Notes: generated from the sequence alone by a model not told the origin. A DNA stretch of 64,000 nucleotides from an uncultured Alphaproteobacteria bacterium (GCA_902567135.1 CACFLO010000001.1:49748-113747); one strand, 5' to 3'. Counted from the stretch's first letter, positions 10,990 to 55,284 are shown. Numbers and translations: made by a program.

Positions 10990-11928
10990 ATGACTCAAAT
11001 AAAACCAACAGCGGGTCAAACAACCCCTCGCTTTGCAGATATCGCAACTTTTTTCCGTTTACCTATAGTTAAGGACTTAAATAAATTAGACTATTGTATT
11101 TGTGGAATACCATGGGATGGAGGAACAACTAATAGGCCTGGCGCAAGACATGGGCCAAGAGAAATTAGAAATGCTTCTTCACTTATCAGAACATATCACC
11201 CATCATCATTAAAAAGCCCATACGATAATTATCAAATTGCAGACATCGGTGATTGCCCAGTGAATCCTGCAGATCTACAAGACTCACTTAATAAAATAAC
11301 TAGTTTTTATAACAAAATTGCTGAAACAAAAACAATACCACTTTCTATAGGAGGTGATCATCTTATTTCTCTTCCAATATTAAGAGCATTAGCAAAAAAT
11401 AAACCTGTGGGAATGTTTCAATTCGATTCTCATTCAGATACATGGGATACATACTTTGGCGGATTTAAATATACTCACGGAACTCCATTTAGAAGAGCTA
11501 TTGAAGAAAATCTTATTGATCCTAAAAAATATGTCATTCTCGGTTTGCGAGGTGGTCTTTATGACCCTGATGACTTAACTTGGGCAATAGATCAAGGAGT
11601 CACAATAATATCAACTGATAAATTTTATGAAATCGGTTTTAAAGAAACAATTAAAATAATAAAAGATATATTAGCAGATACTCCAACTTACTTCACCTTT
11701 GATATTGATGGAATTGATCCAACATTTGCTCCTGGAACAGGAACTCCTGAAGTTGGAGGGATTAATGTTAGAGAATCTCAATTAATTATAAGAGAATTAA
11801 GGGATTTGCATTTTATTGGAGCAGATGTTGTTGAAGTATCTCCTCCATTTGATCTTAACAATATGACTTCATTAGTTGGTGCAACAATAGCTTTTGAAAT
11901 ACTGTGCACTATGACAAAAACAAATTAG
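10990..11928 (+). CDS. Ureohydrolase (agmatinase / guanidino-acid hydrolase family)
   Basis: Arginase-fold Mn ligand motifs SIGGDHLIS, FDSHSDT and FTFDIDGIDP. Substrate cannot be assigned from sequence. Confidence 0.75.
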   Translation: MTQIKPTAGQTTPRFADIATFFRLPIVKDLNKLDYCICGIPWDGGTTNRPGARHGPREIRNASSLIRTYHPSSLKSPYDNYQIADIGDCPVNPADLQDSLNKITSFYNKIAETKTIPLSIGGDHLISLPILRALAKNKPVGMFQFDSHSDTWDTYFGGFKYTHGTPFRRAIEENLIDPKKYVILGLRGGLYDPDDLTWAIDQGVTIISTDKFYEIGFKETIKIIKDILADTPTYFTFDIDGIDPTFAPGTGTPEVGGINVRESQLIIRELRDLHFIGADVVEVSPPFDLNNMTSLVGATIAFEILCTMTKTN

Positions 11929-24490: not shown

Positions 24491-25594
24491 ATGATTGATT
24501 CATCAAGAAAAGGACAAAGTTATTACATGATCAAGCCAAATGCAATTCTAGAAGTAAATTTAAAAAATCTTGTATACAATTATAAAAAACTTTCCAAAAT
24601 AGCCAATAATTCTGCTTGTGCAGCAGTAATTAAAGCAGATGCATATGGTACTGGTGTTTTAAAAATATTTGAAACTTTATATAAAAACAATTGCAGACAT
24701 TTTTTTGTTGCAACTACCGAAGAAGCTTTGGAAATTAGAAAAAAAAAATCAAAAGGTAGTGTGTATGTTTTAAATGGATTGGAAAATACTAAATTACAAA
24801 TATTTTATAATCACAATATCATTCCTATAATAAATGATAAAAATGAATTTAATGTTATATCAAAAAATTTAAATAAATTTAAAAAATTTAAATATGGAAT
24901 ACATGTTGATACAGGCATCAACAGGCTAGGAATAAATTATCATGAATTCTTCAAATTAAATTTTACTAATAAAAAATTTAGTATTTTAATTAGTCATTTA
25001 TCAAGTTCAGATGAAGATAAAAGTAGTTATAATAATTTACAAAATAATAAATTTAAAAAAATATTTAACCTGAATATTAATACTGAATACAAAAGTTTAT
25101 CAAATTCTATGGCATTAAATTTAGGAAAAAATTTCCATCATGATCTAGTTAGGTCGGGTATTGCTTTATATGGTGGACATTTAAATACAAAGATGAAAAA
25201 AATCATCAAGCCTGTTGTCACCTTAAAGAGTAAAATTTTACAAATTAAAGAAATTAATAAAAATGAATTTATTGGCTACAATAACACTTTTAAAACCAAA
25301 AAAAAAATTACAGTAGCAATTATAGGTATTGGGTATGCTGATGGAATTTCAAGAATATTAAGTAATAAGGGAAAAGTGTATTTAAATAATCAGAGTTTTA
25401 AGATTTTAGGCCGTATATCCATGGACACTATCACCATTGATATTTCGCAAAAAAGTAATTTGCTAAAAGTTGGAGATTACATGGAATTAATTAATCATGC
25501 CCACGGAATAGATAAAATAGCAAAACAATGTAATACAATTTCTCATGAAATTCTAACTTCGATTTCTAAGAGAGTCAATAGAGTTTATGTTTAG
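24491..25594 (+). CDS. alr: Alanine racemase
   Basis: PLP-lysine motif AAVIKADAYGTG, RSGIALYGG and GYADG. The true start may be the internal Met at 24527. Confidence 0.85.
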   Translation: MIDSSRKGQSYYMIKPNAILEVNLKNLVYNYKKLSKIANNSACAAVIKADAYGTGVLKIFETLYKNNCRHFFVATTEEALEIRKKKSKGSVYVLNGLENTKLQIFYNHNIIPIINDKNEFNVISKNLNKFKKFKYGIHVDTGINRLGINYHEFFKLNFTNKKFSILISHLSSSDEDKSSYNNLQNNKFKKIFNLNINTEYKSLSNSMALNLGKNFHHDLVRSGIALYGGHLNTKMKKIIKPVVTLKSKILQIKEINKNEFIGYNNTFKTKKKITVAIIGIGYADGISRILSNKGKVYLNNQSFKILGRISMDTITIDISQKSNLLKVGDYMELINHAHGIDKIAKQCNTISHEILTSISKRVNRVYV

Positions 25595-25596
25595 AA

Positions 25597-26574
25597 TTAC
25601 TCATAGGCAATTACACTAATGATTTCAAACATAATAGAGGCAGCAACCATTGACGTTATATTATTTTTTTGATCTTTAGTAGGCATTAAACATACAACAT
25701 CTCCACCTATAACATTTTTATTTTTTACTGATTGAATTAATGCTTTTGCTTCATCAATTGTAAAACCAGTAAAACTTGGCTCAATATTTGAAACTGCAGG
25801 AGCTACTGAAGAATCTAAAGAATCTAAATCAAAAGTAATGTAAACTGGATTATCGCCTATTTTATCAAGAGTTTCATCTATGACATCTTTAATACCTCTC
25901 TTGTGAAACTCTTGCATAGTAACGACATTGTAACCAAGATCATAACTTGGTTGTAGCCAGTCCAATGTACGTGGATTACCTCTCATTCCAATTTGCATAC
26001 TATTTTTTGGATTAATAATACCTTGATCAACAAGATAAGCACCCCAATGTGCAGCACTCTTTTTTGCACCCATAAAGTGATCTAGTTGACTAAAAGTATC
26101 AGTATGAGCATCAATATGAAGAAAGGATATTTTTGTTCCTTTTGTCATTTCTAAATTATTAGATCCCAATCCTTGTAAAATACCCCCTGTAATTGAATGA
26201 TCACCACCAATAGATACAACTGGTTTTTTTTCTTTAGCTATGTTTGTATAAAAATTTGTAATATCCTCAATACATCGCTCATTATTATTTGCATGTGGAA
26301 GAGCAACATCACCTAAATCAAATATTTTTTTTTCTTTCCAAGGATTAATATTAAAATCTAAATGAACTCTTCTTAGTCCAGCAGATACATTCCTTACAGC
26401 TCTTGGTCCTAAATGCTGATCTCTCTCTGTAGTGCCATTACCAGTACTATGAGGAACACCAACTAATGCTATATCACAATTTGATATGTCTTTTCTATTT
26501 TCACACCGAAATAATGTTGGTATTCCCCACCAATACATTGTTTCCATCATCAACTCATCATTGGAGTTACTCAT
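25597..26574 (-). CDS. Ureohydrolase (agmatinase / guanidino-compound hydrolase family)
   Basis: Mn-ligand motifs SIGGDHSITG, HIDAHTDT and ITFDLDSLDSS. Last gene of the aminotransferase-ald operon. Confidence 0.75.
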   Translation of the reverse strand: MSNSNDELMMETMYWWGIPTLFRCENRKDISNCDIALVGVPHSTGNGTTERDQHLGPRAVRNVSAGLRRVHLDFNINPWKEKKIFDLGDVALPHANNNERCIEDITNFYTNIAKEKKPVVSIGGDHSITGGILQGLGSNNLEMTKGTKISFLHIDAHTDTFSQLDHFMGAKKSAAHWGAYLVDQGIINPKNSMQIGMRGNPRTLDWLQPSYDLGYNVVTMQEFHKRGIKDVIDETLDKIGDNPVYITFDLDSLDSSVAPAVSNIEPSFTGFTIDEAKALIQSVKNKNVIGGDVVCLMPTKDQKNNITSMVAASIMFEIISVIAYE

Positions 26575-26584
26575 TTTAAATAGA

Positions 26585-27700
26585 TTAATTTATTGCTTTG
26601 CTTGGATCAACAAAATTATAACCTAAATCTTCTGCAACTGCCTTATAAGTTACATTGCCTTGGCAAATATTTAGGCCAGCAAGGAAATTTGCATCACTAC
26701 TCAAAGCATCTCTATAACCACTTTGTGCCAGTTTCAAAACAAATGGTAAAGTTGCACTATTCAAAGCGATAGTAGACGTCATAGGAACGCCGCCTGGCAT
26801 ATTGGCAACACAGTAATGAACAACATCATCAATTACATATGTTGGATTTGCATGAGTCGTTGGTTTACTTGTTTCTACACACCCACCTTGATCTATAGCA
26901 ACATCGACGATTACTGATCCTCTTTTCATATCTGTAATCATTTCCCTTGATATTAATTTTGGAGCATTAGCACCAGGAATTAAGACACCTCCAATTAATA
27001 TATCTGTTTCAACAACATAATCTTTTAAATTTATATGATCAGAGACTAAAGGAATAATTCTATCACCAAACTTCATTTGAAGTTCTTCAAGACGAGATTC
27101 CGATTTATCGACAATATGAACTTTTGCTTCCATGCCTGATGCAATCGCTGCAGCATTTTCACCTACAACGCCACCACCTAAAATTAGCACATTTCCAGGA
27201 TTAACTCCTGGAGCCCCACCAATTAATAATCCTCTGCCACCTTGAGGTTTCTCCAAGCAATGTGCTCCAGCTTGAACAGACATTCTTCCTGCAACAGCAC
27301 TCATTGGGGCCAATAAAGGTAATCTATTATTTTCATCAGTGACAGTTTCATAGGCAATACAAATGGATTTTGAGTTAATTAAACCTTTTGTTAATTCTGG
27401 AGCTGCAGATAAATGTAAGTAAGTGAATAAGATTTGATTTTCTCGTAACATATTAACCTCTTCAGATTGAGGTTCTTTAACTTTTACAATCATATCAGAG
27501 TCATTAAAAACATCAGCAGCAGTTGAAGCTATTTTAGCTCCAGCTTTTTCATAATCAGCATTTTCAAAACCTGCACCAAAACCAGCGTCTTTCTGAACTA
27601 AAACATCGTGTCCATGATTAGTTAATTCTTGAACGCTTAAAGGAGTAAGGCCGACCCTAGATTCTTGTGCTTTAATTTCAGATGGAAGACCAACTTTCAC
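26585..27700 (-). CDS. ald: Alanine dehydrogenase
   Basis: 371 aa. MKVGLPSEIKAQESRVGLTP, NAD fold VLILGGGVVGENAA and a conserved VDVAIDQGG block. Confidence 0.9.
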   Translation of the reverse strand: MKVGLPSEIKAQESRVGLTPLSVQELTNHGHDVLVQKDAGFGAGFENADYEKAGAKIASTAADVFNDSDMIVKVKEPQSEEVNMLRENQILFTYLHLSAAPELTKGLINSKSICIAYETVTDENNRLPLLAPMSAVAGRMSVQAGAHCLEKPQGGRGLLIGGAPGVNPGNVLILGGGVVGENAAAIASGMEAKVHIVDKSESRLEELQMKFGDRIIPLVSDHINLKDYVVETDILIGGVLIPGANAPKLISREMITDMKRGSVIVDVAIDQGGCVETSKPTTHANPTYVIDDVVHYCVANMPGGVPMTSTIALNSATLPFVLKLAQSGYRDALSSDANFLAGLNICQGNVTYKAVAEDLGYNFVDPSKAIN

Positions 27701-29040
27701 TATTGTTCCTTAAAATAATTAGTAATACCTGTTCTAAGTTTCTCAATAATTTCATCAATATGTTTTTTTTCTGAAATAAAAGGTGGCGCTACTATTAAAC
27801 AATCACCCGTTGCTTTTAGGCTGAGACCTGAGGCAAACAAAGATTTAAAACATGCATAACCAGCTTTACCAAGACGCTCATCCATTCGTAAATCAATACC
27901 GCCCATCATCCCATAGCCTCTAATATCTGCAATACCTTCAATATCTTTTAGACTGAACAAACCATCTAAAAAGTATGGGGACATTTCTTTAGCACGATTA
28001 AATAAATCTTCTTTTTTAAAAATATCTTGCATCGCTAAACCAGCTGCAACTGAACATGGTATTGCTGAATATGTATAACCATGAAAAAATTCAATAGCGC
28101 CTTTAGGTGCGGCATCTACCATAGAGTCATAAATGTGCTCTCTTGATGCTACTGCTCCAAGTGGAACCACACCATTAGTAATAGCTTTTGCCATTGTCAT
28201 AATATCAGGAGTAACATCAAATGCTTGGGCTCCAAATGGTTCACCCATTCTACCCCAGCCAGTTATAACTTCATCAAAGACAAGAAGAATGCCATGCTTA
28301 TCACAAATCTCTCTTAATTTTTTTAAATATCCTTTTGGTGGTACTAAAGTTCCTGTGGAACCAGCTACAGGCTCTACAATACATGCTGCAATATTTTCTC
28401 CACCTATATGACCTGCTATGCGTTCTAAATCTTCTGCCAAATAATCACCTGTTGCAGGTTCGCCTCTTACAAATTTATTATCTGGAAGATGTGTATGGCG
28501 TAAATGATGTACGTTTGGCATCAAGATACTTGAAAAAGTTTTTCTATTGGCAACCATTCCTCCAACAGAAATTCCTCCAATGTTCATTCCGTGATAACCT
28601 CTCTCGCGACCAACAATATGATGTCTGTGTCCTTCACCTTTTGCTTTGAAGTAGGCTATTGCAGTTTTAATTGCCGTATCAACTGCAGATGAACCACACA
28701 TAGTAAAAAAAATTCTATTTAAATCTTCAGGTGTATGTTTAGAAATTCTTCTTGCCAATTCAAATGAACCGTTAAATCCTTGTTGAAAGGGTTGAACATA
28801 ATCAAGTTGTTCAAGTTGTTTATATACCGCTTCTCTGATTTCCTGACGTCCATGACCTGCTGGACTACAAAACAATCCCGAACTTGCATCTATTAATTGA
28901 TTGCCATGATGGTCAGTGTAGTACATTCCTTCGGCTTTGACCATTAGCCTTGGATTATTTTTAAAATCATCATTCGATGTAAATGGCATCCAATGTTCTT
29001 CAAGTGAATTTGGTAATTCGTTTCTATTTTCTAAATCCAT
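27700..29040 (-). CDS. Class-III omega-amino acid:pyruvate aminotransferase (candidate taurine:pyruvate or beta-alanine:pyruvate aminotransferase)
   Basis: 446 aa. HWMPFTSN..NPRL..AEGMYYTD, FDEVITGWGRMG, and the PLP-Lys region MTMAKAITNG. Context with ald, pta and xsc favours a Tpa-like role. Confidence 0.8.
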   Translation of the reverse strand: MDLENRNELPNSLEEHWMPFTSNDDFKNNPRLMVKAEGMYYTDHHGNQLIDASSGLFCSPAGHGRQEIREAVYKQLEQLDYVQPFQQGFNGSFELARRISKHTPEDLNRIFFTMCGSSAVDTAIKTAIAYFKAKGEGHRHHIVGRERGYHGMNIGGISVGGMVANRKTFSSILMPNVHHLRHTHLPDNKFVRGEPATGDYLAEDLERIAGHIGGENIAACIVEPVAGSTGTLVPPKGYLKKLREICDKHGILLVFDEVITGWGRMGEPFGAQAFDVTPDIMTMAKAITNGVVPLGAVASREHIYDSMVDAAPKGAIEFFHGYTYSAIPCSVAAGLAMQDIFKKEDLFNRAKEMSPYFLDGLFSLKDIEGIADIRGYGMMGGIDLRMDERLGKAGYACFKSLFASGLSLKATGDCLIVAPPFISEKKHIDEIIEKLRTGITNYFKEQ

Positions 29041-29172
29041 AATTATCCCTAAATAAGCAAATTTTATTAAGCCTTACATCATAGAAATAGCTAATCCAAG
29101 AAGAATTCTTGCTGTTTTTCTTAATTTCATAGGAAAATTTAACACCCTAGTATAGAAGAAAAAAATTCATTT

Positions 29173-30084
29173 ATGCTACAATCAAAAGAATCTCAAATTC
29201 CTAATAATTTAATATCATTGGCTAAAAAAACGCCTAATCTTTCAGCAGGAATCATTTGTGCTAATCATGACTCCTCAATGGAATCAGCTAAAAAATCAGT
29301 TGAGTTAAATCTTATAAACCCAATTTTTATTGGCAACAAACAAGAGATCAATGAAAAGGCTGAAAAAATTGAATGGGATATAAATGCTTATGAAATAATT
29401 AATTCTTCTAATGATGTAGAGGCTGCAATTATTGGGGCAGAACTTGGAAGAGATAATAAAATAAAAGTAATGATTAAAGGCAATCTTCATACAGATGTTT
29501 TAATGAGAGCCTACTTAAAAAAAGAATTTGGTCTTATTGAAGGAAAAAGATTAAGCCATATTTGGCATATGACAATTTTAAAAGATGATAAACCACTTTT
29601 TATAACTGATGGAGCTTTAAATGTTGCGCCTCGTATTGATGTCAAAATGCATATACTTAAAAATGTTATTGAATTTGCAAACCAAATCGATATTGCAAAA
29701 CCAAGAGTAGCTATCTTATCAGGCACAGAAGATCCAATTGAAAGTATGCCAAGTTCTGTAGAGGCAAAAGAGTTAATGGAACGTGCAAAAAATGAAAATA
29801 TTAATGCTTATGTTCATGGACCTTTAGCTTTTGATAATGCTATTTCTCCAGAAGCTGCTGCAATTAAAAATATTTCTAATGAAGTCGCTGGAAAAGCTGA
29901 TATTCTTTTGGTTCCGAATTTAGAAACGGGTAACGCTTTATCAAAAATCATGGTTTACTTTATGGGAGCTTGCGCTGCTGGTTTTATTGTTGGCGGTAAA
30001 GTTCCTGTTGTTGTAACAAGTAGAGCAGATAGTTCTGCATCACGAATAGCATCTATCGCAGCTTCCGTTATAGCTGCGCAATAG
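29173..30084 (+). CDS. pta: Phosphate acetyl/butyryl-transferase family protein (short Pta)
   Basis: 303 aa with VMIKGNLHTD, TDGALNVAP and LVPNLETGNALSK, typical of the PTA_PTB fold. Confidence 0.7.
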   Translation: MLQSKESQIPNNLISLAKKTPNLSAGIICANHDSSMESAKKSVELNLINPIFIGNKQEINEKAEKIEWDINAYEIINSSNDVEAAIIGAELGRDNKIKVMIKGNLHTDVLMRAYLKKEFGLIEGKRLSHIWHMTILKDDKPLFITDGALNVAPRIDVKMHILKNVIEFANQIDIAKPRVAILSGTEDPIESMPSSVEAKELMERAKNENINAYVHGPLAFDNAISPEAAAIKNISNEVAGKADILLVPNLETGNALSKIMVYFMGACAAGFIVGGKVPVVVTSRADSSASRIASIAASVIAAQ

Positions 30085-30986
30085 TGAAAAAAAATAGATT
30101 AATAAATGTTGCTTTATTGGCAATTGGAGCAACTTTCTTTGGTTCATTTATGGGGGCTGGAGTAAAATTACTCTCTACTGATCTTCATCCAATCATTATT
30201 TGTTTTTATCGATGCTTAATGGGATTGATAATTATTACTCCTTTTGTAGCAAGAAATAATTTTAAAGCACTTAAATCAAGTAATACCAAACTTCAATTAA
30301 TTAGAGCTTCAATAAATATCATTTCAATGATTTGTTGGTTTTCTGCAATTGGAATGATGCATTTTGAAAAAGCTACAGCTCTTGGATTTACAACACCTTT
30401 ATTTACAACTGTTTTAGCTGTTATTATTCTAGGTGAGGTAATTCGCTTTCATAGAACAGCAGCTCTAATCTTAGGTTTTGTTGGAATTATTATTATTATT
30501 CGTCCTGGCTACATGCCTTTTGAATTTGGCACACTATTGATGCTTGCTGCCTCTTTTAGTTTTTCTTTTGTTTTAATCTTAGTTAAAAAATTGTCTGATA
30601 CCGATTCTAGTTTAACAATTATTTTTTATCATTTGCTATACATGACTCCTGTTTTTTTTATTATTTCCCTATTTTTTTGGGAAAGCGTTAACTTTAATCA
30701 ATTAATAATTTTTGCATTTATGGGTGCGGCAGGATTGTTATCACATTGGTGTTTAGCGCAAGCTTTCAAACTTTCTGATACTACTTTTGTGATGCCACTT
30801 CAATTTACTAAATTAATATGGGCTTCTTTAATCGGATTATTTATATTTGCTGAACAACCAGACATTTGGACTTGGATTGGAGGTATAGTTATATTTATCT
30901 CTGTTCTCTATATTACTTACCGTGAAGCATTTAAAAAGAAAGGAACAAAAAAACCTATTCAAGTTGATAGAGCTATCATAAATTAA
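30084..30986 (+). CDS. EamA/DMT-family permease
   Basis: 300 aa, about 10 TMs. The GTG start overlaps the pta stop by 1 nt, suggesting translational coupling. Confidence 0.7.
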   Translation: MKKNRLINVALLAIGATFFGSFMGAGVKLLSTDLHPIIICFYRCLMGLIIITPFVARNNFKALKSSNTKLQLIRASINIISMICWFSAIGMMHFEKATALGFTTPLFTTVLAVIILGEVIRFHRTAALILGFVGIIIIIRPGYMPFEFGTLLMLAASFSFSFVLILVKKLSDTDSSLTIIFYHLLYMTPVFFIISLFFWESVNFNQLIIFAFMGAAGLLSHWCLAQAFKLSDTTFVMPLQFTKLIWASLIGLFIFAEQPDIWTWIGGIVIFISVLYITYREAFKKKGTKKPIQVDRAIIN

Positions 30987-31035
30987 TGGATATTTAAAAA
31001 TTACTTTAAAAACTTTTTTAATTATTAAATTAATC

Positions 31036-31215
31036 TTAATGTGCTGTATGTGCTGTTGTTGAGTGTTTTCTTCCAGAAAATACATAGTCTCTAATTTCCG
31101 TCACTTCTTCTTGGGAAATTTTATTTGCAATAACTGCAAATTTATCAGAAATTTTAACTGAGAAATATACAGAAGTTAAAAGCACAATGATTATTCCTAA
31201 AGGTATATATTTCAT
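31036..31215 (-). CDS. Possible small single-TM protein (59 aa, below the ORF-track cut-off)
   Basis: Own codon-by-codon translation: MKYIPLGIIIVLLTSVYFSVKISDKFAVIANKISQEEVTEIRDYVFSGRKHSTTAHTAH*. AAGG-containing stretch about 10 nt upstream. No homology evidence. Confidence 0.3.
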   Translation of the reverse strand: MKYIPLGIIIVLLTSVYFSVKISDKFAVIANKISQEEVTEIRDYVFSGRKHSTTAHTAH

Positions 31216-31350
31216 AAGTTGTAGCCTTTCTTAATATTTTCAATATCCTTATTATTATACAAAAATTTAAATGATAATACCATACCATTAAATCTACTTA
31301 AACCAATGGTTTGGAGAATTTTTAAATAAATACCCTAAAGAATATTATAA

Positions 31351-32118
31351 TTATTTTGCGGTCCAGCCACCATCTATCACTAAGGATGAGCCAGTAATCA
31401 TAGAGGAGGCATTCGATGCTAAATATACTACGGCCGTTGCAATATCACTTTCAGTACCAAAACGTCCCAAAGGAATATTATTCATCATTGTTTTCTTAAA
31501 TTTTTTATTTTCAAAAAATTTTTTTACCATTGGTGTTTCAACAAAAGTAGGGCAGACTGTATTTACTCGTATATTTTTTTTTGCCAAATCTAACGCCATC
31601 CCTCTTGTTAAACCTTCAAGACCAAATTTTGTCATATTATAAATACTTCTATTTGGTGCTCCAACTTTCCCTAATTGAGAAGACATATTGATAATAGAAC
31701 CACCTTTTGATTTTCTATTTTTTGACTCTAGCATAACTTTTGCAGCCATCTGTGCTACATGAAAAGCAGCTTTCATATTTAAATCAACTACATAATCCAT
31801 GTCTTCTTTTTTAATTTTAGTAAAATGATCTGGTCGATTAGCACCTGCATTGTTTACTAATATATCTAAAGAAGAAACTTTATTAAATACGTTTTTTACA
31901 TCTTCATAGTTTGAAACACCACATATATACGATTTACATTTTCTCTTAAGTTTAGTGATTTGTTTTTCAACTTTATCTAAATCGCTTTTAGTCCTACTAA
32001 GAATAATAAGATTAGCACCCGCCTCTGCCAAAGCTACAGCACAAGCTTTACCAATACCCTTGCCAGCTCCTGTAACTAAAGCTGTTTTATTTTTTACTTG
32101 TGTTTGCTGTAAATACAT
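31351..32118 (-). CDS. Short-chain dehydrogenase/reductase
   Basis: TGAGKGIG cofactor motif, NNAG, and catalytic Ser...YNMTK (YxxxK). Confidence 0.85.
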   Translation of the reverse strand: MYLQQTQVKNKTALVTGAGKGIGKACAVALAEAGANLIILSRTKSDLDKVEKQITKLKRKCKSYICGVSNYEDVKNVFNKVSSLDILVNNAGANRPDHFTKIKKEDMDYVVDLNMKAAFHVAQMAAKVMLESKNRKSKGGSIINMSSQLGKVGAPNRSIYNMTKFGLEGLTRGMALDLAKKNIRVNTVCPTFVETPMVKKFFENKKFKKTMMNNIPLGRFGTESDIATAVVYLASNASSMITGSSLVIDGGWTAK

Positions 32119-50806: not shown

Positions 50807-52081
50807 TTAAACCAAATCAAGAGGTATTGAAGATAACAATTCCAGCCCCTTTTCAGTAACTAAATATTGATCTTCTAATTTTGCCCCTTCATTTGCTCCG
50901 ACCTCCCCAATATAGCTTTCAACACACACCACCATATTTTCTTGAAAAATTCCACTATAATCCCCATTACTATAATCTGCATTCGGATAGCCAATATACG
51001 GCCATTCATCACTCATTCCAACACCATGTATTTGACATGGATAATGATTATCAAAACAATTGTCTGGAAGTTGCCAAGCTTTTTCTGCAAATTCTCTGAA
51101 AGATAATCCAGGCTTAATTAATTGCTCATTGTATTTTACATTTTCATAAGCCAAGCTATGAATTTTATTTTGATAATTGCTTAATTTTTTTCCTTCTACA
51201 AATGTTCTTGAAATATCAGCACAATATCCATAAGGCCCAACCATATCTGTATCAAAAGCAACGAGTTCACCTTCTTCGATAATTCTATTACTGCACTCTT
51301 GAAACCAGGGATTGGTTTTTGGACCTGAATTTAATAATCTTGTTTCAAACCACTCACCTCCATTTTCAATGTTTGTTTTATGTAAAATTGACCACAATTC
51401 TTCTTCTGTCATGCCAGCTTTTAAATTTTCATGCATAAGTAAAATACCTTTCTCAGCTGTTTTAATTGAAGCTTTCATACATATAATTTCATCTTGGGAC
51501 TTTATGGATCTTGCAATTTCCATAAATTTTTGAGCGTTAATTATGTCGTATTCATAATTATTATTTAAAGCATTGATACCGGCTGGATCACAAACATCGA
51601 TAATAAGTTTTTTATTTTCAGAACTATATTGCTTCATTAGGTCATCTATTACCTTTGACCATTCAAGAGCTTTATCATAAACATTATTTCCCCAAGTAAA
51701 ATGATCCCAACTGATCACTTCTCTTACTTCATCGATGGTACAATTATTCTCGTAAATATGTTCACAATTTGGGTATTCAAATAATATTACTGGTCCATTG
51801 GCAGGAATAAAAACGTATCGCGTCATCAGATGAAAAGAAAATACTGACATATTTCTTGTATCCGTAGCATAACGAATATTTATCGGATCAAATAAGATAC
51901 ATGCACCTATTTCATTTTGTTGTAATTGATCTCTTACTCTATTTAATCGATACATTCGCATACGATCAAAATTAATTTTATCTTCATAAAGTTTTGGTTT
52001 GAAACTGTTGTTTACAACAGAATCTTTTTCCCCAAACTTCGGACCAATTTTTCTATTGATATTTTTTGTATTAAAATTCAT
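50807..52081 (-). CDS. M24-family (creatinase/prolidase-fold) metallohydrolase
   Basis: 424 aa. Creatinase-type N-domain (ILFDPINIRYATDTRN) and a pita-bread domain with ligand-like residues (FDTDMVGPYGYCADISRTF, HGVG, VESY, KLEDQ). Confidence 0.75.
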   Translation of the reverse strand: MNFNTKNINRKIGPKFGEKDSVVNNSFKPKLYEDKINFDRMRMYRLNRVRDQLQQNEIGACILFDPINIRYATDTRNMSVFSFHLMTRYVFIPANGPVILFEYPNCEHIYENNCTIDEVREVISWDHFTWGNNVYDKALEWSKVIDDLMKQYSSENKKLIIDVCDPAGINALNNNYEYDIINAQKFMEIARSIKSQDEIICMKASIKTAEKGILLMHENLKAGMTEEELWSILHKTNIENGGEWFETRLLNSGPKTNPWFQECSNRIIEEGELVAFDTDMVGPYGYCADISRTFVEGKKLSNYQNKIHSLAYENVKYNEQLIKPGLSFREFAEKAWQLPDNCFDNHYPCQIHGVGMSDEWPYIGYPNADYSNGDYSGIFQENMVVCVESYIGEVGANEGAKLEDQYLVTEKGLELLSSIPLDLV

Positions 52082-52513: not shown

Positions 52514-53434
52514 TTAACTATAAATATAAAAAATATAACTAATGTATAATAGTAAACTTATAGATCCATAGGTTCTTCCAATTCTTTTTAAAAAAAACAT
52601 AAATCCTAAGATCATCAAAGTTACAAATAACATAAATAGTAAATCCTCAGAACCTATTACTGCTGGTATGCTAAAGTTGCCAAAAAAAGAAGAAATACCT
52701 AATACACCCAAGATATTATATATATTTGATCCCAAAACATTACCAAGAGCAAAATCAACTTTACGTCTAATTGCTGATAAAATTCCAACTACAAGCTCAG
52801 GAAGTGAAGTACCAAATGCAACTAATGATACACCTATTACAGCTTCTGGAATATTTAATTCATTTGCAATATTAATTGCCGATTTAACAAAAAGATCTGA
52901 TCCGTAAATAAGCAATAATATTCCAACTAAAATAAATATTATTGATATGATAAGAGAATAATCTCCTTTTTCGTTAACATCAGAAACATCAAGTGAGCCC
53001 TGTTTCACTTGCATGTACATTATAAAAAATAATAGACAAACAGATAAAATGCCAAAAAGAAAATTAAAAGGTAAAATAAAAAAACTCATAGTTATTAAAA
53101 CTAAAGCTAAGAAAATGTTTATCCAAGCTTGGTTAATTTGATTTTGGTTAATATTACTAATAGGAATTAAAAAAGATGTTGCGGCCATAACAAGTATTAA
53201 ATTAGCAATATTGCTTCCAATAACAGCGCCAACAGCTAAATCAGCATGATTTTTAACTACAGCATTAATACTACTTGCTAATTCTGGTAAAGATGTTCCT
53301 CCAGCAATAATAACTACGCCTATAGCAAATAGTGAAACTTTTAATTTTTTGCCAAAACTTATCGAACCTCTAATAATTAACTCAGCACCTAAAACAAGCA
53401 GGCCTAAACCTATAAACAAAAATATTAAATTCAC
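52514..53434 (-). CDS. Ca2+/Na+ (cation) antiporter, CaCA family
   Basis: 306 aa, about 10 TMs, with the duplicated alpha-repeat motifs GTSLPELASS and GTSLPELVVG. Confidence 0.8.
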   Translation of the reverse strand: MNLIFLFIGLGLLVLGAELIIRGSISFGKKLKVSLFAIGVVIIAGGTSLPELASSINAVVKNHADLAVGAVIGSNIANLILVMAATSFLIPISNINQNQINQAWINIFLALVLITMSFFILPFNFLFGILSVCLLFFIMYMQVKQGSLDVSDVNEKGDYSLIISIIFILVGILLLIYGSDLFVKSAINIANELNIPEAVIGVSLVAFGTSLPELVVGILSAIRRKVDFALGNVLGSNIYNILGVLGISSFFGNFSIPAVIGSEDLLFMLFVTLMILGFMFFLKRIGRTYGSISLLLYISYIFYIYS

Positions 53435-53508: not shown

Positions 53509-55284
53509 TTATTGAACGACAGTATCCTGACTATTAATGCCCGCTACTTCAACTGGTGCTTTCATTGCATCTCTCCTAAATGGCTCACCAAGTTCTTGAT
53601 TTAGAATGACTTCGATAAAAGTTGTAATACCATTCATTTGATCAACACATGATGCTTTAAGAGCTTCTGTTAACTCTGATTGAGTTGTAACTTTAACACC
53701 TTTAAAGCCGCATGCTTCTGCAATTTTTGCATAACTTAATTTTGGATCAAGTTCTGTTCCAATAAAGTTGTTATCGTACCAAAGGGTGGTATTTCTTTTC
53801 TCTGCTCCCCATTGATAATTTCGAAATATAACCATTGTAATATTTGGCCACTCTTCTCGACTACATGAAGTCATCTCACTCATACTAATTCCAAAAGCAC
53901 CATCGCCAGAAAAACCTACAACTGGTGTATTAGGACAACCAATTTTTGCACCTAAAACAGATGGAAAACCATAACCGCATGGTCCAAATAAACCTGGAGC
54001 TAAGTATTTTCTTCCTTTTTCAAAAGTAGGATAAGCATTACCAATTGCACAGTTATTACCAATATCACTTGAAATTATAGCATCATCGGGTAAGCCTGCT
54101 TGAATAGCTCTCCAAGCCATACGTGGTGACATTCTATCAGGATCTCTCTCCCTTGAATCTTTATTCCATGTTGTGCCTTCATCATCTTCTTCATGATCTA
54201 AACTTGTTAGTGTTTGAAGCCATGCTGATTTAGTCTGATGTATTAATGCTTTTCTATCTTCTCTTCCACTATCTCCTGCAGTTGAAGATAATTGACTTAG
54301 AATTTGTTGAGCAACAAGCTTAGCATCACCACAAATTCCTACTGATATTTTTTTTGCTAAACCAATTCTATCAGAGTTAAAATCAACTTGAATTATTTTT
54401 GCCTCTTTTGGCCAGTAATCAATTCCATAACCAGGTAGTGTTGAAAAAGGATTTAATCTTGTTCCAAGTGCTAGTACTACATCGGCCTTGGAAATAATTT
54501 CCATTGCTGCTTTAGATCCGTTGTATCCAAGTGGGCCAATCGCAAGTGGATGTTTTCCTGGAAAACTATCGTTGTGTTGATATCCACAAGCTACAGGAGC
54601 ATCTAATTTTTCAGCAATTTTTTTACAATCTCCAATAGCATCAGCAAGAACTACACCTGCTCCAGATAATATTACTGGAAATTTTGCATTTGATAAAAGT
54701 TTTGCAGCCTCAGTAATTGCTGCAGCTCCTCCAGATGGTCTTTCAAATTCAATAATAGAGGGTAATTCAATATCAACAACCTGGGTCCAGAAATCTCGTG
54801 GAACATTTATTTGCGCTGGGGCTGATCCTCTTTTAGCTTTTAATATTACTCTATTTAACACTTCTGCCATTCTAGACGCATCACGAACTTCTTCTTGATA
54901 ACACACCATATCTTTAAATAAATTCATTTGCTCTACTTCTTGAAAACCACCTTGACCCATTGTTTTATTTGCTGCTTGAGGAGTAACTAAAAGCATCGGT
55001 GTGTGATTCCAATAAGCTGTTTTTATTGGTGTTACTAATCCAGTTATACCTGGTCCATTTTGTGCAATACACATAGCAATTTTACCAGTTGATCTTGTAT
55101 AGCCATCTGCGATTAAACCACCATTTGACTCATGTGCTACATCCCAAAAAGTAATACCAGCTTTTGGAAAAAGATCTGAAATTGGCATAAAAGCTGATCC
55201 TATTATTCCAAAAGAATGTTGTATTCCATGCATTTGTAAAACTTTTACAAAAGCTTCCTCAGTAGTCATTTTAGCCATCTTCAC
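53509..55284 (-). CDS. xsc: Sulfoacetaldehyde acetyltransferase (TPP enzyme)
   Basis: 591 aa. N-terminus TTEEAFVKVLQMHGIQHSFGIIGSAFMPISDLFPKAGITFWD..AQNGPGITG..AYWNHTPMLLVTPQA and TPP motif GDGAFGISMSEM, as I remember them for Xsc. Context includes pta and the aminotransferase. Confidence 0.8.
   Translation of the reverse strand: MKMAKMTTEEAFVKVLQMHGIQHSFGIIGSAFMPISDLFPKAGITFWDVAHESNGGLIADGYTRSTGKIAMCIAQNGPGITGLVTPIKTAYWNHTPMLLVTPQAANKTMGQGGFQEVEQMNLFKDMVCYQEEVRDASRMAEVLNRVILKAKRGSAPAQINVPRDFWTQVVDIELPSIIEFERPSGGAAAITEAAKLLSNAKFPVILSGAGVVLADAIGDCKKIAEKLDAPVACGYQHNDSFPGKHPLAIGPLGYNGSKAAMEIISKADVVLALGTRLNPFSTLPGYGIDYWPKEAKIIQVDFNSDRIGLAKKISVGICGDAKLVAQQILSQLSSTAGDSGREDRKALIHQTKSAWLQTLTSLDHEEDDEGTTWNKDSRERDPDRMSPRMAWRAIQAGLPDDAIISSDIGNNCAIGNAYPTFEKGRKYLAPGLFGPCGYGFPSVLGAKIGCPNTPVVGFSGDGAFGISMSEMTSCSREEWPNITMVIFRNYQWGAEKRNTTLWYDNNFIGTELDPKLSYAKIAEACGFKGVKVTTQSELTEALKASCVDQMNGITTFIEVILNQELGEPFRRDAMKAPVEVAGINSQDTVVQ

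Follow-up and report, generated by a model that had tools for sequence, protein, structure and literature searches.

An atypical arginase-fold ureohydrolase as a putative guanidino entry point to a taurine/beta-alanine-type deamination operon in a marine alphaproteobacterium

The present work concerns a stretch of 64,000 nucleotides from an uncultured Alphaproteobacteria bacterium (GCA_902567135.1 CACFLO010000001.1:49748-113747; the whole stretch is hereafter the window), and in particular an operon for omega-amino acid deamination that ends in an atypical arginase-fold ureohydrolase of 325 amino acids, here called UH-C (25597-26574, minus strand). Judging by its residues, UH-C is a predicted metal-dependent amidinohydrolase of a remodelled, uncharacterised ureohydrolase clade, and the loop that caps its active site favours an anionic substrate. 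Within its genus, the gene is an accessory one, placed on a conserved deamination operon and always accompanied by a permease gene of its own type. Taurocyamine, hydrolyzed to taurine and urea, is proposed as a tentative candidate substrate.

An arginase-fold enzyme with a remodelled active site

The membership of UH-C in the arginase superfamily is clear. The protein matches the PF00491 profile over residues 34-318 (218.1 bits, cut-off 22), and its AF2 model adopts the arginase alpha/beta fold (pTM 0.86, mean pLDDT 78.5). The top Foldseek matches to this model were 3niq, 7lox and 1gq6 (TM 0.76-0.90), the guanidinopropionase (GpuA) structure 3niq being the nearest (TM 0.84-0.87). At the sequence level, the best matches in the PDB were GpuA (3nip, 131 bits) and the guanidinobutyrase GbuA (112 bits), with 28% identity. 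UH-C scored below the cut-offs of both agmatinase models, TIGR01230 (126 bits vs 174.3) and NF002564 (167.2 bits vs 302). The six ligands of the binuclear metal center, corresponding to SpeB H126, D149, H151, D153, D230 and D232, are kept, with the motifs GGDHS, DAHTD and DLDSLD, and the same H-D-H-D...D-D pattern is found in at least 102 clade members.

The sequence-only reading of this DNA had described the manganese ligands as intact. This is correct for the six residues concerned, but the description hides a change in the guanidinium-binding glutamate, whose position (arginase E277, SpeB E274, and the Glu of the DVVEVSP motif in GpuA and GbuA) is occupied in UH-C by Cys295. Three independent alignments, including one with 7lol, agree on this replacement. 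To place it in the context of the family, 167 sequences were aligned with MAFFT and the full-length members of each type were compared. The UH-C clade departs from the canonical consensus, in a conserved manner, at approximately 45 other positions, among them the equivalents of SpeB D43, R49, R53, H163, T244 and Y279, the last of these being changed to Lys, and the second Thr of the GTGTP loop, which is replaced by Asn. Moreover, the GTGTPE loop is rewritten with an insertion of two residues. The catalytic or proton-shuttle histidine (arginase H141, SpeB H163) is aligned in two ways: phmmer pairs His176 with the GpuA histidine by means of a gap, whereas MAFFT puts Ala174 at that position and His176 two positions further on.

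A quick maximum-likelihood tree of the family, built with IQ-TREE and including both ureohydrolases of the window, recovered UH-C in a clade of its own (support 99), split by a branch of support 100 from all sequences of the Glu type, among which were E. coli SpeB and the second ureohydrolase of the window, described below. The basal member of the UH-C clade, P0129, still has the glutamate. HutG was also sought as a comparison for this position, and none was found above the cut-off in five alphaproteobacterial genomes. With its clade set apart and its active site remodelled in this way, even the role of a guanidino hydrolase releasing urea is putative for UH-C.

The capping loop favours an anionic substrate

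The capping loop of UH-C follows the pattern (R/K)-R-x-H, its first two residues being Arg68 and Arg69 in the window protein. The first basic residue, Arg or Lys in 100 of 106 UH-C sequences, aligns with R72 of GbuA and R105 of human GDAH, where the carboxylate or sulfonate group of a guanidino acid is bound (PMC9772407). Human GDAH is itself an arginase-fold enzyme that hydrolyzes taurocyamine, guanidinobutyrate and guanidinopropionate (PMC9772407). The second residue, Arg in 102 of the 106 sequences, aligns with Trp68 of SpeB, the cation-pi partner that holds the amine of agmatine (PMC8125230). With basic residues at both positions, the loop would favour a substrate with an anionic distal group and disfavour agmatine. 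Lys300 is a further basic residue specific to the clade.

The second ureohydrolase of the window (10990-11928, plus strand), already noticed in the sequence-only reading, is of a different kind. It is encoded by a solitary gene flanked by AhpC-like and aldo-keto reductase genes, matches guanidinopropionase 3nip with 377.7 bits (E 3.7e-112) and GbuA with 265 bits, keeps both the glutamate and the capping Arg, and falls in the Glu-type clade of the tree. In view of these features, it is likely a hydrolase of the 3-guanidinopropionate type. About two thirds of the genomes searched within the genus gave matches of low identity (32-35%), located at its position or of its kind. Acting with the beta-alanine-type aminotransferase, whose gene lies 16 kb off, this paralogue would plausibly allow the use of 3-guanidinopropionate via beta-alanine without UH-C. 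Since the paralogue already covers substrates of this type, UH-C probably has another one; 3-guanidinopropionate, which had been put forward for the operon enzyme, is thus better assigned to the canonical paralogue.

UH-C closes an aminotransferase-alanine dehydrogenase operon

UH-C is the last gene of a minus-strand operon whose first gene encodes a class-III omega-amino acid:pyruvate aminotransferase (AT) of the beta-alanine/taurine type (27700-29040; NF052567 AptA, 583.7 bits, cut-off 500). The gene for alanine dehydrogenase (Ald, 26585-27700; TIGR00518, 495.5 bits, cut-off 391.85) shares the single base 27700 with that of AT, and a spacer of 10 nt, TCTATTTAAA, separates it from UH-C. Owing to this short gap, and to the same gene order in all nine UH-C-carrying loci checked, UH-C is very probably co-transcribed with AT and Ald. 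A scan of 25300-31400 returned promoter-like and terminator matches in numbers at chance level only, and no terminator-like site on the minus strand between the three genes. On the other side of a divergent intergenic region (29041-29172), presumed from direct reading of the sequence to hold the promoters of both transcription units, lies the gene for a short phosphotransacylase consisting of the PTA_PTB domain only (Pta, 29173-30084, plus strand; PF01515, 125.8 bits; NF006045, 294 bits, cut-off 282). It is followed by an EamA/DMT permease gene, here referred to as type B or EamA(B) (30084-30986, plus strand; PF00892), which has base 30084 in common with Pta and is translationally coupled to it. 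Open reading frames and family matches bore out the positions and junctions previously given for these five genes.

Judging by the nearest records (SAG AG-447-C07, HIMB59-LRMED-199 and MarineAlpha5 bins), the host belongs to the HIMB59/AEGEAN-169 group and not to SAR11 proper, as had been assumed. Its genome contains urease and four TauE-family genes.

UH-C and its permease are accessory to a conserved operon

We then compared the locus across the genus, using 61 genomes, from which 18 loci were fetched (10 without UH-C and 8 carriers), or 19 when the window is included. AT is nearly core (51/61 genomes), and UH-C is accessory (10/61). Orthologues of EamA(B), with at least 84% identity, were present in exactly the ten genomes that carry UH-C. 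Ald and Pta adjoin AT in 19/19 loci, and all ten loci without UH-C show one and the same arrangement, namely a MetE-like gene convergent on Ald-AT, with Pta and another permease, EamA(A), diverging from AT. In the eight fetched carriers, as in the window, UH-C is added behind Ald and EamA(B) behind Pta, and the order AT-Ald-UH-C is kept in 9/9. No similarity could be detected between EamA(A) and EamA(B). Orthologous operons without the ureohydrolase, which the sequence-only reading had regarded as an argument against its proposal, are therefore what most of the genus has. Nevertheless, because UH-C always comes with its own type of permease, we read the pair as an accessory entry module on a conserved deamination operon, which is an interpretation and not a proof. 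As the carriers are relatives, UH-C and EamA(B) may have been gained only once. In the carrier G035, an AT resembling that of the UH-C-less form (85%) occurs with a ureohydrolase (92%) and a permease (89%) of the carrier form, a mixture that hints at recombination.

Other genes vary together with this arrangement. In the window, an alanine racemase gene (24491-25594, plus strand; TIGR00492, 265 bits, cut-off 168) converges on UH-C, the two stop codons being 2 nt apart. Matches to alanine racemase, over at least 60% of its length, were found in five of the fetched carrier loci and in none of the ten UH-C-less loci. The racemase would supply D-alanine to Ald; on this view, the locus may gather feeders into an alanine/pyruvate hub. 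In addition, a DUF1989 gene lies behind UH-C in four fetched carrier loci (e.g., L047:4009-4869, minus strand), but not in the window. A different form of this domain was observed on contig C15 of genome G000 (L141:214-2571, minus strand), where a protein of 785 amino acids fuses DUF1989 to an aminomethyltransferase (GCV_T and GCV_T_C).

The operon has a taurine/beta-alanine-type core

AT is a pyruvate-type omega-aminotransferase whose closest solved structure is the beta-alanine:pyruvate transaminase of P. aeruginosa (4b98, 390 bits), compared with only 276-287 bits for putrescine/polyamine transaminases; the AptA model that it matches is likewise a beta-alanine-type model, and not one named for taurine. 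Bacterial taurine dissimilation by the Tpa-Ald-Xsc-Pta set is established in organisms of the Bilophila, Rhodococcus, roseobacter and Paracoccus types. In this set, Ald regenerates pyruvate and releases ammonium, and Xsc performs the desulfonating step; an amidinohydrolase is, to our knowledge, no part of it. The set had previously been invoked for this operon, and its desulfonating member, sulfoacetaldehyde acetyltransferase Xsc, was indeed found in the window, 22.5 kb from the operon (53509-55284, minus strand; TIGR03457, 941 bits, cut-off 676.4). Taken together, AT-Ald with divergent Pta and Xsc would fit the deamination of taurine, hypotaurine or beta-alanine. TauA had no match in the host genome, which is 66.8% complete, so that its absence is not shown; no TauABC, TauKLM or TauR was seen near the operon, TauKLM not having been searched for.

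Two other genes close to Xsc were noted. A Na_Ca_ex (CaCA-family) membrane protein gene (52514-53434, minus strand) follows it on the same strand, and its product may be a carrier, either of ions or sulfite-related, linked to desulfonation. Further on, a gene for an M24/Creatinase_N protein (50807-52081, minus strand) was considered as a possible creatinase, but this assignment was unsupported: the protein is DddP-like, though its 358 bits fall short of the cut-off of 600. A Pelagibacter operon with UH-C contains a similar gene, likewise DddP-like.

UH-C in other marine lineages

Relatives of UH-C were found at no fewer than 576 loci in public genomes, and the clade extends over HIMB59, Pelagibacter, SAR116 and roseobacters. 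The Pelagibacter enzymes share 66-68% identity with that of the window, and their genes usually diverge from a pair formed by EamA and, behind it, a 2-oxoglutarate-Fe(II) (2OG-Fe(II)) oxygenase gene. The surrounding genes comprise ProVWX, BHMT-like and DMGDH-like genes, a GMC oxidoreductase, a pair of TauD-family and HD-oxygenase genes, and BKACE. In five Pelagibacter loci, BHMT-like, DMGDH-like, UH-C, methyltransferase and GbcA-like genes stand in this order on one strand beside ProWX.

Among Rhodobacterales, 22 of 301 genomes contain UH-C. Their common form (L172:3162-14144 of genome G248, and loci L164, L165, L169, L171, L179 and L180) consists of a LysR gene, a ProX-ProV-ProW-UH-C series, a convergent canonical ureohydrolase gene, and MttB-family and DMGDH-like genes, with a gene for an M19 dipeptidase-like protein and an aldehyde dehydrogenase gene diverging upstream. 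The canonical enzyme is 47-49% identical to the GpuA-like paralogue of the window, and the occurrence of two kinds of ureohydrolase side by side suggests different specificities. In one Rhodobacterales genome, genes for a DDAH/ADI-fold enzyme and an M20 amidase are present as well. As for SAR116, one operon comprises TauD-family, TauE, UH-C and EamA genes, and another ProXVW, FA_hydroxylase and UH-C; in HTCC2255, a TauE-family gene is divergent from UH-C. No ProU-type importer adjoins UH-C in the window, where the EamA permease takes that place. A more distant relative, P0123 (49% identity), has a response regulator and a CYTH/CHAD protein as neighbours, which are uninformative.

These contexts agree on the uptake of small zwitterions or osmolyte-like compounds together with guanidino metabolism. 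A link to sulfonates is only suggestive, through the two occurrences of TauE exporter-family genes (SAR116 and HTCC2255) and the taurine-type core in the window. The pairing of UH-C with EamA was considered as that of one orthologous permease across lineages, which did not hold: HIMB59 and Pelagibacter permeases share 24-31% identity, and that of SAR116 belongs to another cluster, so that the pairing is a recurrent theme only. Pelagibacter, SAR116 and one roseobacter have thiamine pyrophosphate (TPP) enzymes resembling Xsc in the vicinity of UH-C (e.g., L075:1509-5004 and L167:5929-7617), the Pelagibacter copy being accompanied by a luciferase-like monooxygenase and an AA_synth protein; their 396-421 bits fall short of the cut-off of 620, and they were not accepted as Xsc. 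Moreover, the UH-C-carrying marine alphaproteobacteria G085-G089 have five or six arginase-family paralogues each, an indication that guanidino compounds are used widely and in ways still largely uncharted.

Proposed route and alternative explanations

The simplest fit to these data is an anionic guanidino compound whose amine is accepted by AT. In the proposed route, EamA(B) would import such a compound, taurocyamine being the leading candidate, and UH-C would take off its amidino group as urea, freeing the primary amine, in this case taurine. AT would then move the amine to pyruvate, with Ald regenerating pyruvate and releasing ammonium, and sulfoacetaldehyde would be converted to acetyl-CoA via Xsc and the phosphotransacylase. 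Taurocyamine is the best single guess, since each step downstream of taurine has a candidate enzyme here, and we put it forward tentatively, at clearly less than an even chance. The position of UH-C in the operon and its capping Arg-Arg pair agree with the earlier proposal that an acidic guanidino derivative enters the taurine/beta-alanine route here; given the remodelling of the clade, any substrate named for UH-C is a candidate.

Several observations weigh against this route. The glutamate column holds Cys in 105/105 full-length members of the UH-C clade and Glu in 57/57 canonical sequences, and the E274A variant of E. coli agmatinase retained 1-2% of the activity and lost its affinity for guanidine (PMC8125230). 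As this residue, the GTGTP threonine, other conserved positions and apparently the histidine register are changed, the reacting group may not be a plain guanidinium. In addition, the urease alpha subunit was detected in 2/10 UH-C carriers, namely the host genome and its near-identical twin G011, as compared to 36/51 of the other genus genomes. If urea is formed, it would mostly be excreted, which counts against a role in urea salvage, although the contrast is weak because the genomes are incomplete and related. Outside the genus, UH-C of Pelagibacter lies inside a glycine-betaine/osmolyte island, and none of the Rhodobacterales neighbours (ProXVW, MttB-family, DMGDH-like and the canonical ureohydrolase) is taurine-specific. 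The TauD-family neighbour in SAR116 was evaluated as a taurine dioxygenase and rejected, with 153 bits vs a cut-off of 313. Overall, the surroundings of the gene in other lineages suggest a tie to betaine-type uptake and methylamine genes no less than to sulfonates.

The main rival explanation takes the changes in the active site at face value: UH-C would act on something other than an unsubstituted guanidinium, such as an N-methylated or substituted guanidine or a formimino, acetimidoyl or ureido group, the product would perhaps not be plain urea, and the link to AT and Ald would reflect only the release of an amine. We regard this as unlikely on balance but deserving serious weight. The uniform Cys, the Thr to Asn change, the many clade-specific positions and the strongly supported split from all canonical enzymes speak in its favour, as do the rarity of urease among carriers and the neighbours found elsewhere, which include oxygenases (2OG-Fe(II), TauD-family and FA_hydroxylase), MttB-family and DMGDH-like demethylation genes, and the DDAH/ADI-fold enzyme with the M20 amidase. 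However, the six metal ligands are kept, a histidine lies two residues from the canonical position, the basal member P0129 has the glutamate, the closest structures are guanidino-acid hydrolases, and the contexts single out no candidate compound. A short guanidino acid has also to be considered, with guanidinoacetate or creatine hydrolyzed to glycine or sarcosine and urea, feeding the pathway from glycine betaine to glycine; in HIMB59, the gene would then have come to lie at an operon end by neutral insertion. The neighbourhoods in Pelagibacter and roseobacters suit this explanation better than the operon of the window does: besides the five Pelagibacter loci beside ProWX described above, UH-C ends ProX-ProV-ProW operons near a DMGDH/sarcosine-dehydrogenase-like gene in Rhodobacterales and SAR116. 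Moreover, the loss of charge from Glu to Cys, together with the Arg/Lys residues, would suit a very short anionic substrate, and AEGEAN-169 genomes have been proposed to belong to creatine users (PMC11366302). Nevertheless, UH-C was gained in this genus with an EamA permease and not with a ProU system, osmolyte islands gather unrelated catabolic genes, and glycine and sarcosine are not expected substrates of AT, so that the tight HIMB59 operon would be left unexplained; we thus consider this explanation decidedly unlikely.

Two further possibilities remain closer to characterized enzymes. That UH-C is a second hydrolase of 3-guanidinopropionate or 4-guanidinobutyrate, with beta-alanine or 4-aminobutyrate being deaminated by AT and Ald, would be in line with the similarity of AT to beta-alanine:pyruvate transaminase, with GpuA and GbuA as nearest structures and sequences, with the conserved capping Arg and with the public annotation of relatives as guanidinopropionase. 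This is quite improbable, as the window already has, 14 kb off, a gene for a canonical GpuA-like enzyme (378 bits to 3nip), a kind far more frequent in the genus; the Rhodobacterales loci that hold both enzymes argue for different specificities, and UH-C lies outside the GpuA/GbuA/SpeB clade and is without the glutamate. Least probable of all, and in our view very improbable, is the agmatinase or arginase activity annotated in SAR11, by which putrescine or ornithine would be formed and transaminated by a SpuC-like activity of AT. Some public records do name relatives agmatinase, SAR11 is thought to convert agmatine via speB (PMC8437039), and the substrate loop of UH-C resembles the SHHEPG loop of plant arginase. 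Against this stand the scores below both agmatinase cut-offs, the missing glutamate that is essential in E. coli agmatinase (PMC8125230), the Arg at the Trp68 position, and an AT nearer to beta-alanine-type than to putrescine-type transaminases and always adjoining Pta.

Significance

Proteins of the UH-C family are very common in ocean metagenomes, where one cluster at 90% identity has more than 3,500 members and others have 1,612 and 792, and the family sits in dominant heterotrophs of the surface ocean. The public names agmatinase and guanidinopropionase given to these proteins are based on homology alone, and among open-access papers we found none that characterizes the UH-C clade or a bacterial taurocyamine hydrolase. 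What is new here are the residue counts across the clade, the tree, the argument from the capping loop, the exact co-occurrence with a permease, the assignment of the paralogue, the contexts across lineages and the cross-tabulation with urease.

A bolder interpretation is that UH-C represents a functionally new class of the arginase fold, in which the Glu to Cys change and the basic residues fit the enzyme for an amidino compound, anionic or N-substituted, outside the range of every known ureohydrolase; taurocyamine, hypotaurocyamine, glycocyamine, creatine or a phosphagen-type guanidine would be candidates. We consider this possible, though well short of probable. If true, an unrecognised and very abundant route would exist in Pelagibacter, HIMB59, SAR116 and roseobacters for stripping nitrogen from animal and algal guanidino osmolytes in the surface ocean, and the host of the window would obtain carbon and sulfonate from them as well. 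More generally, if UH-C opens guanidino sulfonates or acids to these bacteria, models of dissolved-organic-matter turnover would gain a nitrogen source, and in this lineage also one of carbon and reduced sulfur, and reconstructions of the polyamine pathway in SAR11 would have to be corrected. To enzymologists, UH-C is of interest because it is without a residue regarded as essential for the chemistry of the fold.

Comparison with known systems

With the Tpa-Ald-Xsc-Pta set of taurine dissimilation, the locus shares an operon of AT and Ald, a divergent Pta and an Xsc gene in the same 64-kb window, but the operon adds an amidinohydrolase, its AT fits a beta-alanine-type model, and no tau importer or regulator was seen nearby. 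As an enzyme, UH-C is like E. coli SpeB (7LOL/7LOX) in fold and metal ligands, and differs from it in having Cys for E274 and Arg for W68 and in scoring under the cut-offs of the agmatinase models. The likeness to GpuA (3NIP/3NIQ) and GbuA (3NIO) extends from the arginase fold and the six metal ligands to the basic residue at the position of GbuA R72; unlike them, UH-C falls in a deep separate clade, with the Glu of DVVEVSP replaced by Cys, the loop rewritten and the histidine register apparently shifted. Human GDAH (AGMAT) is 60% identical to GbuA and keeps the catalytic His and Glu, whereas UH-C is not close to it and its activity is predicted only. Nevertheless, GDAH, which needs an anionic distal group and the capping R105, shows that the fold they share is able to turn taurocyamine into taurine and urea.

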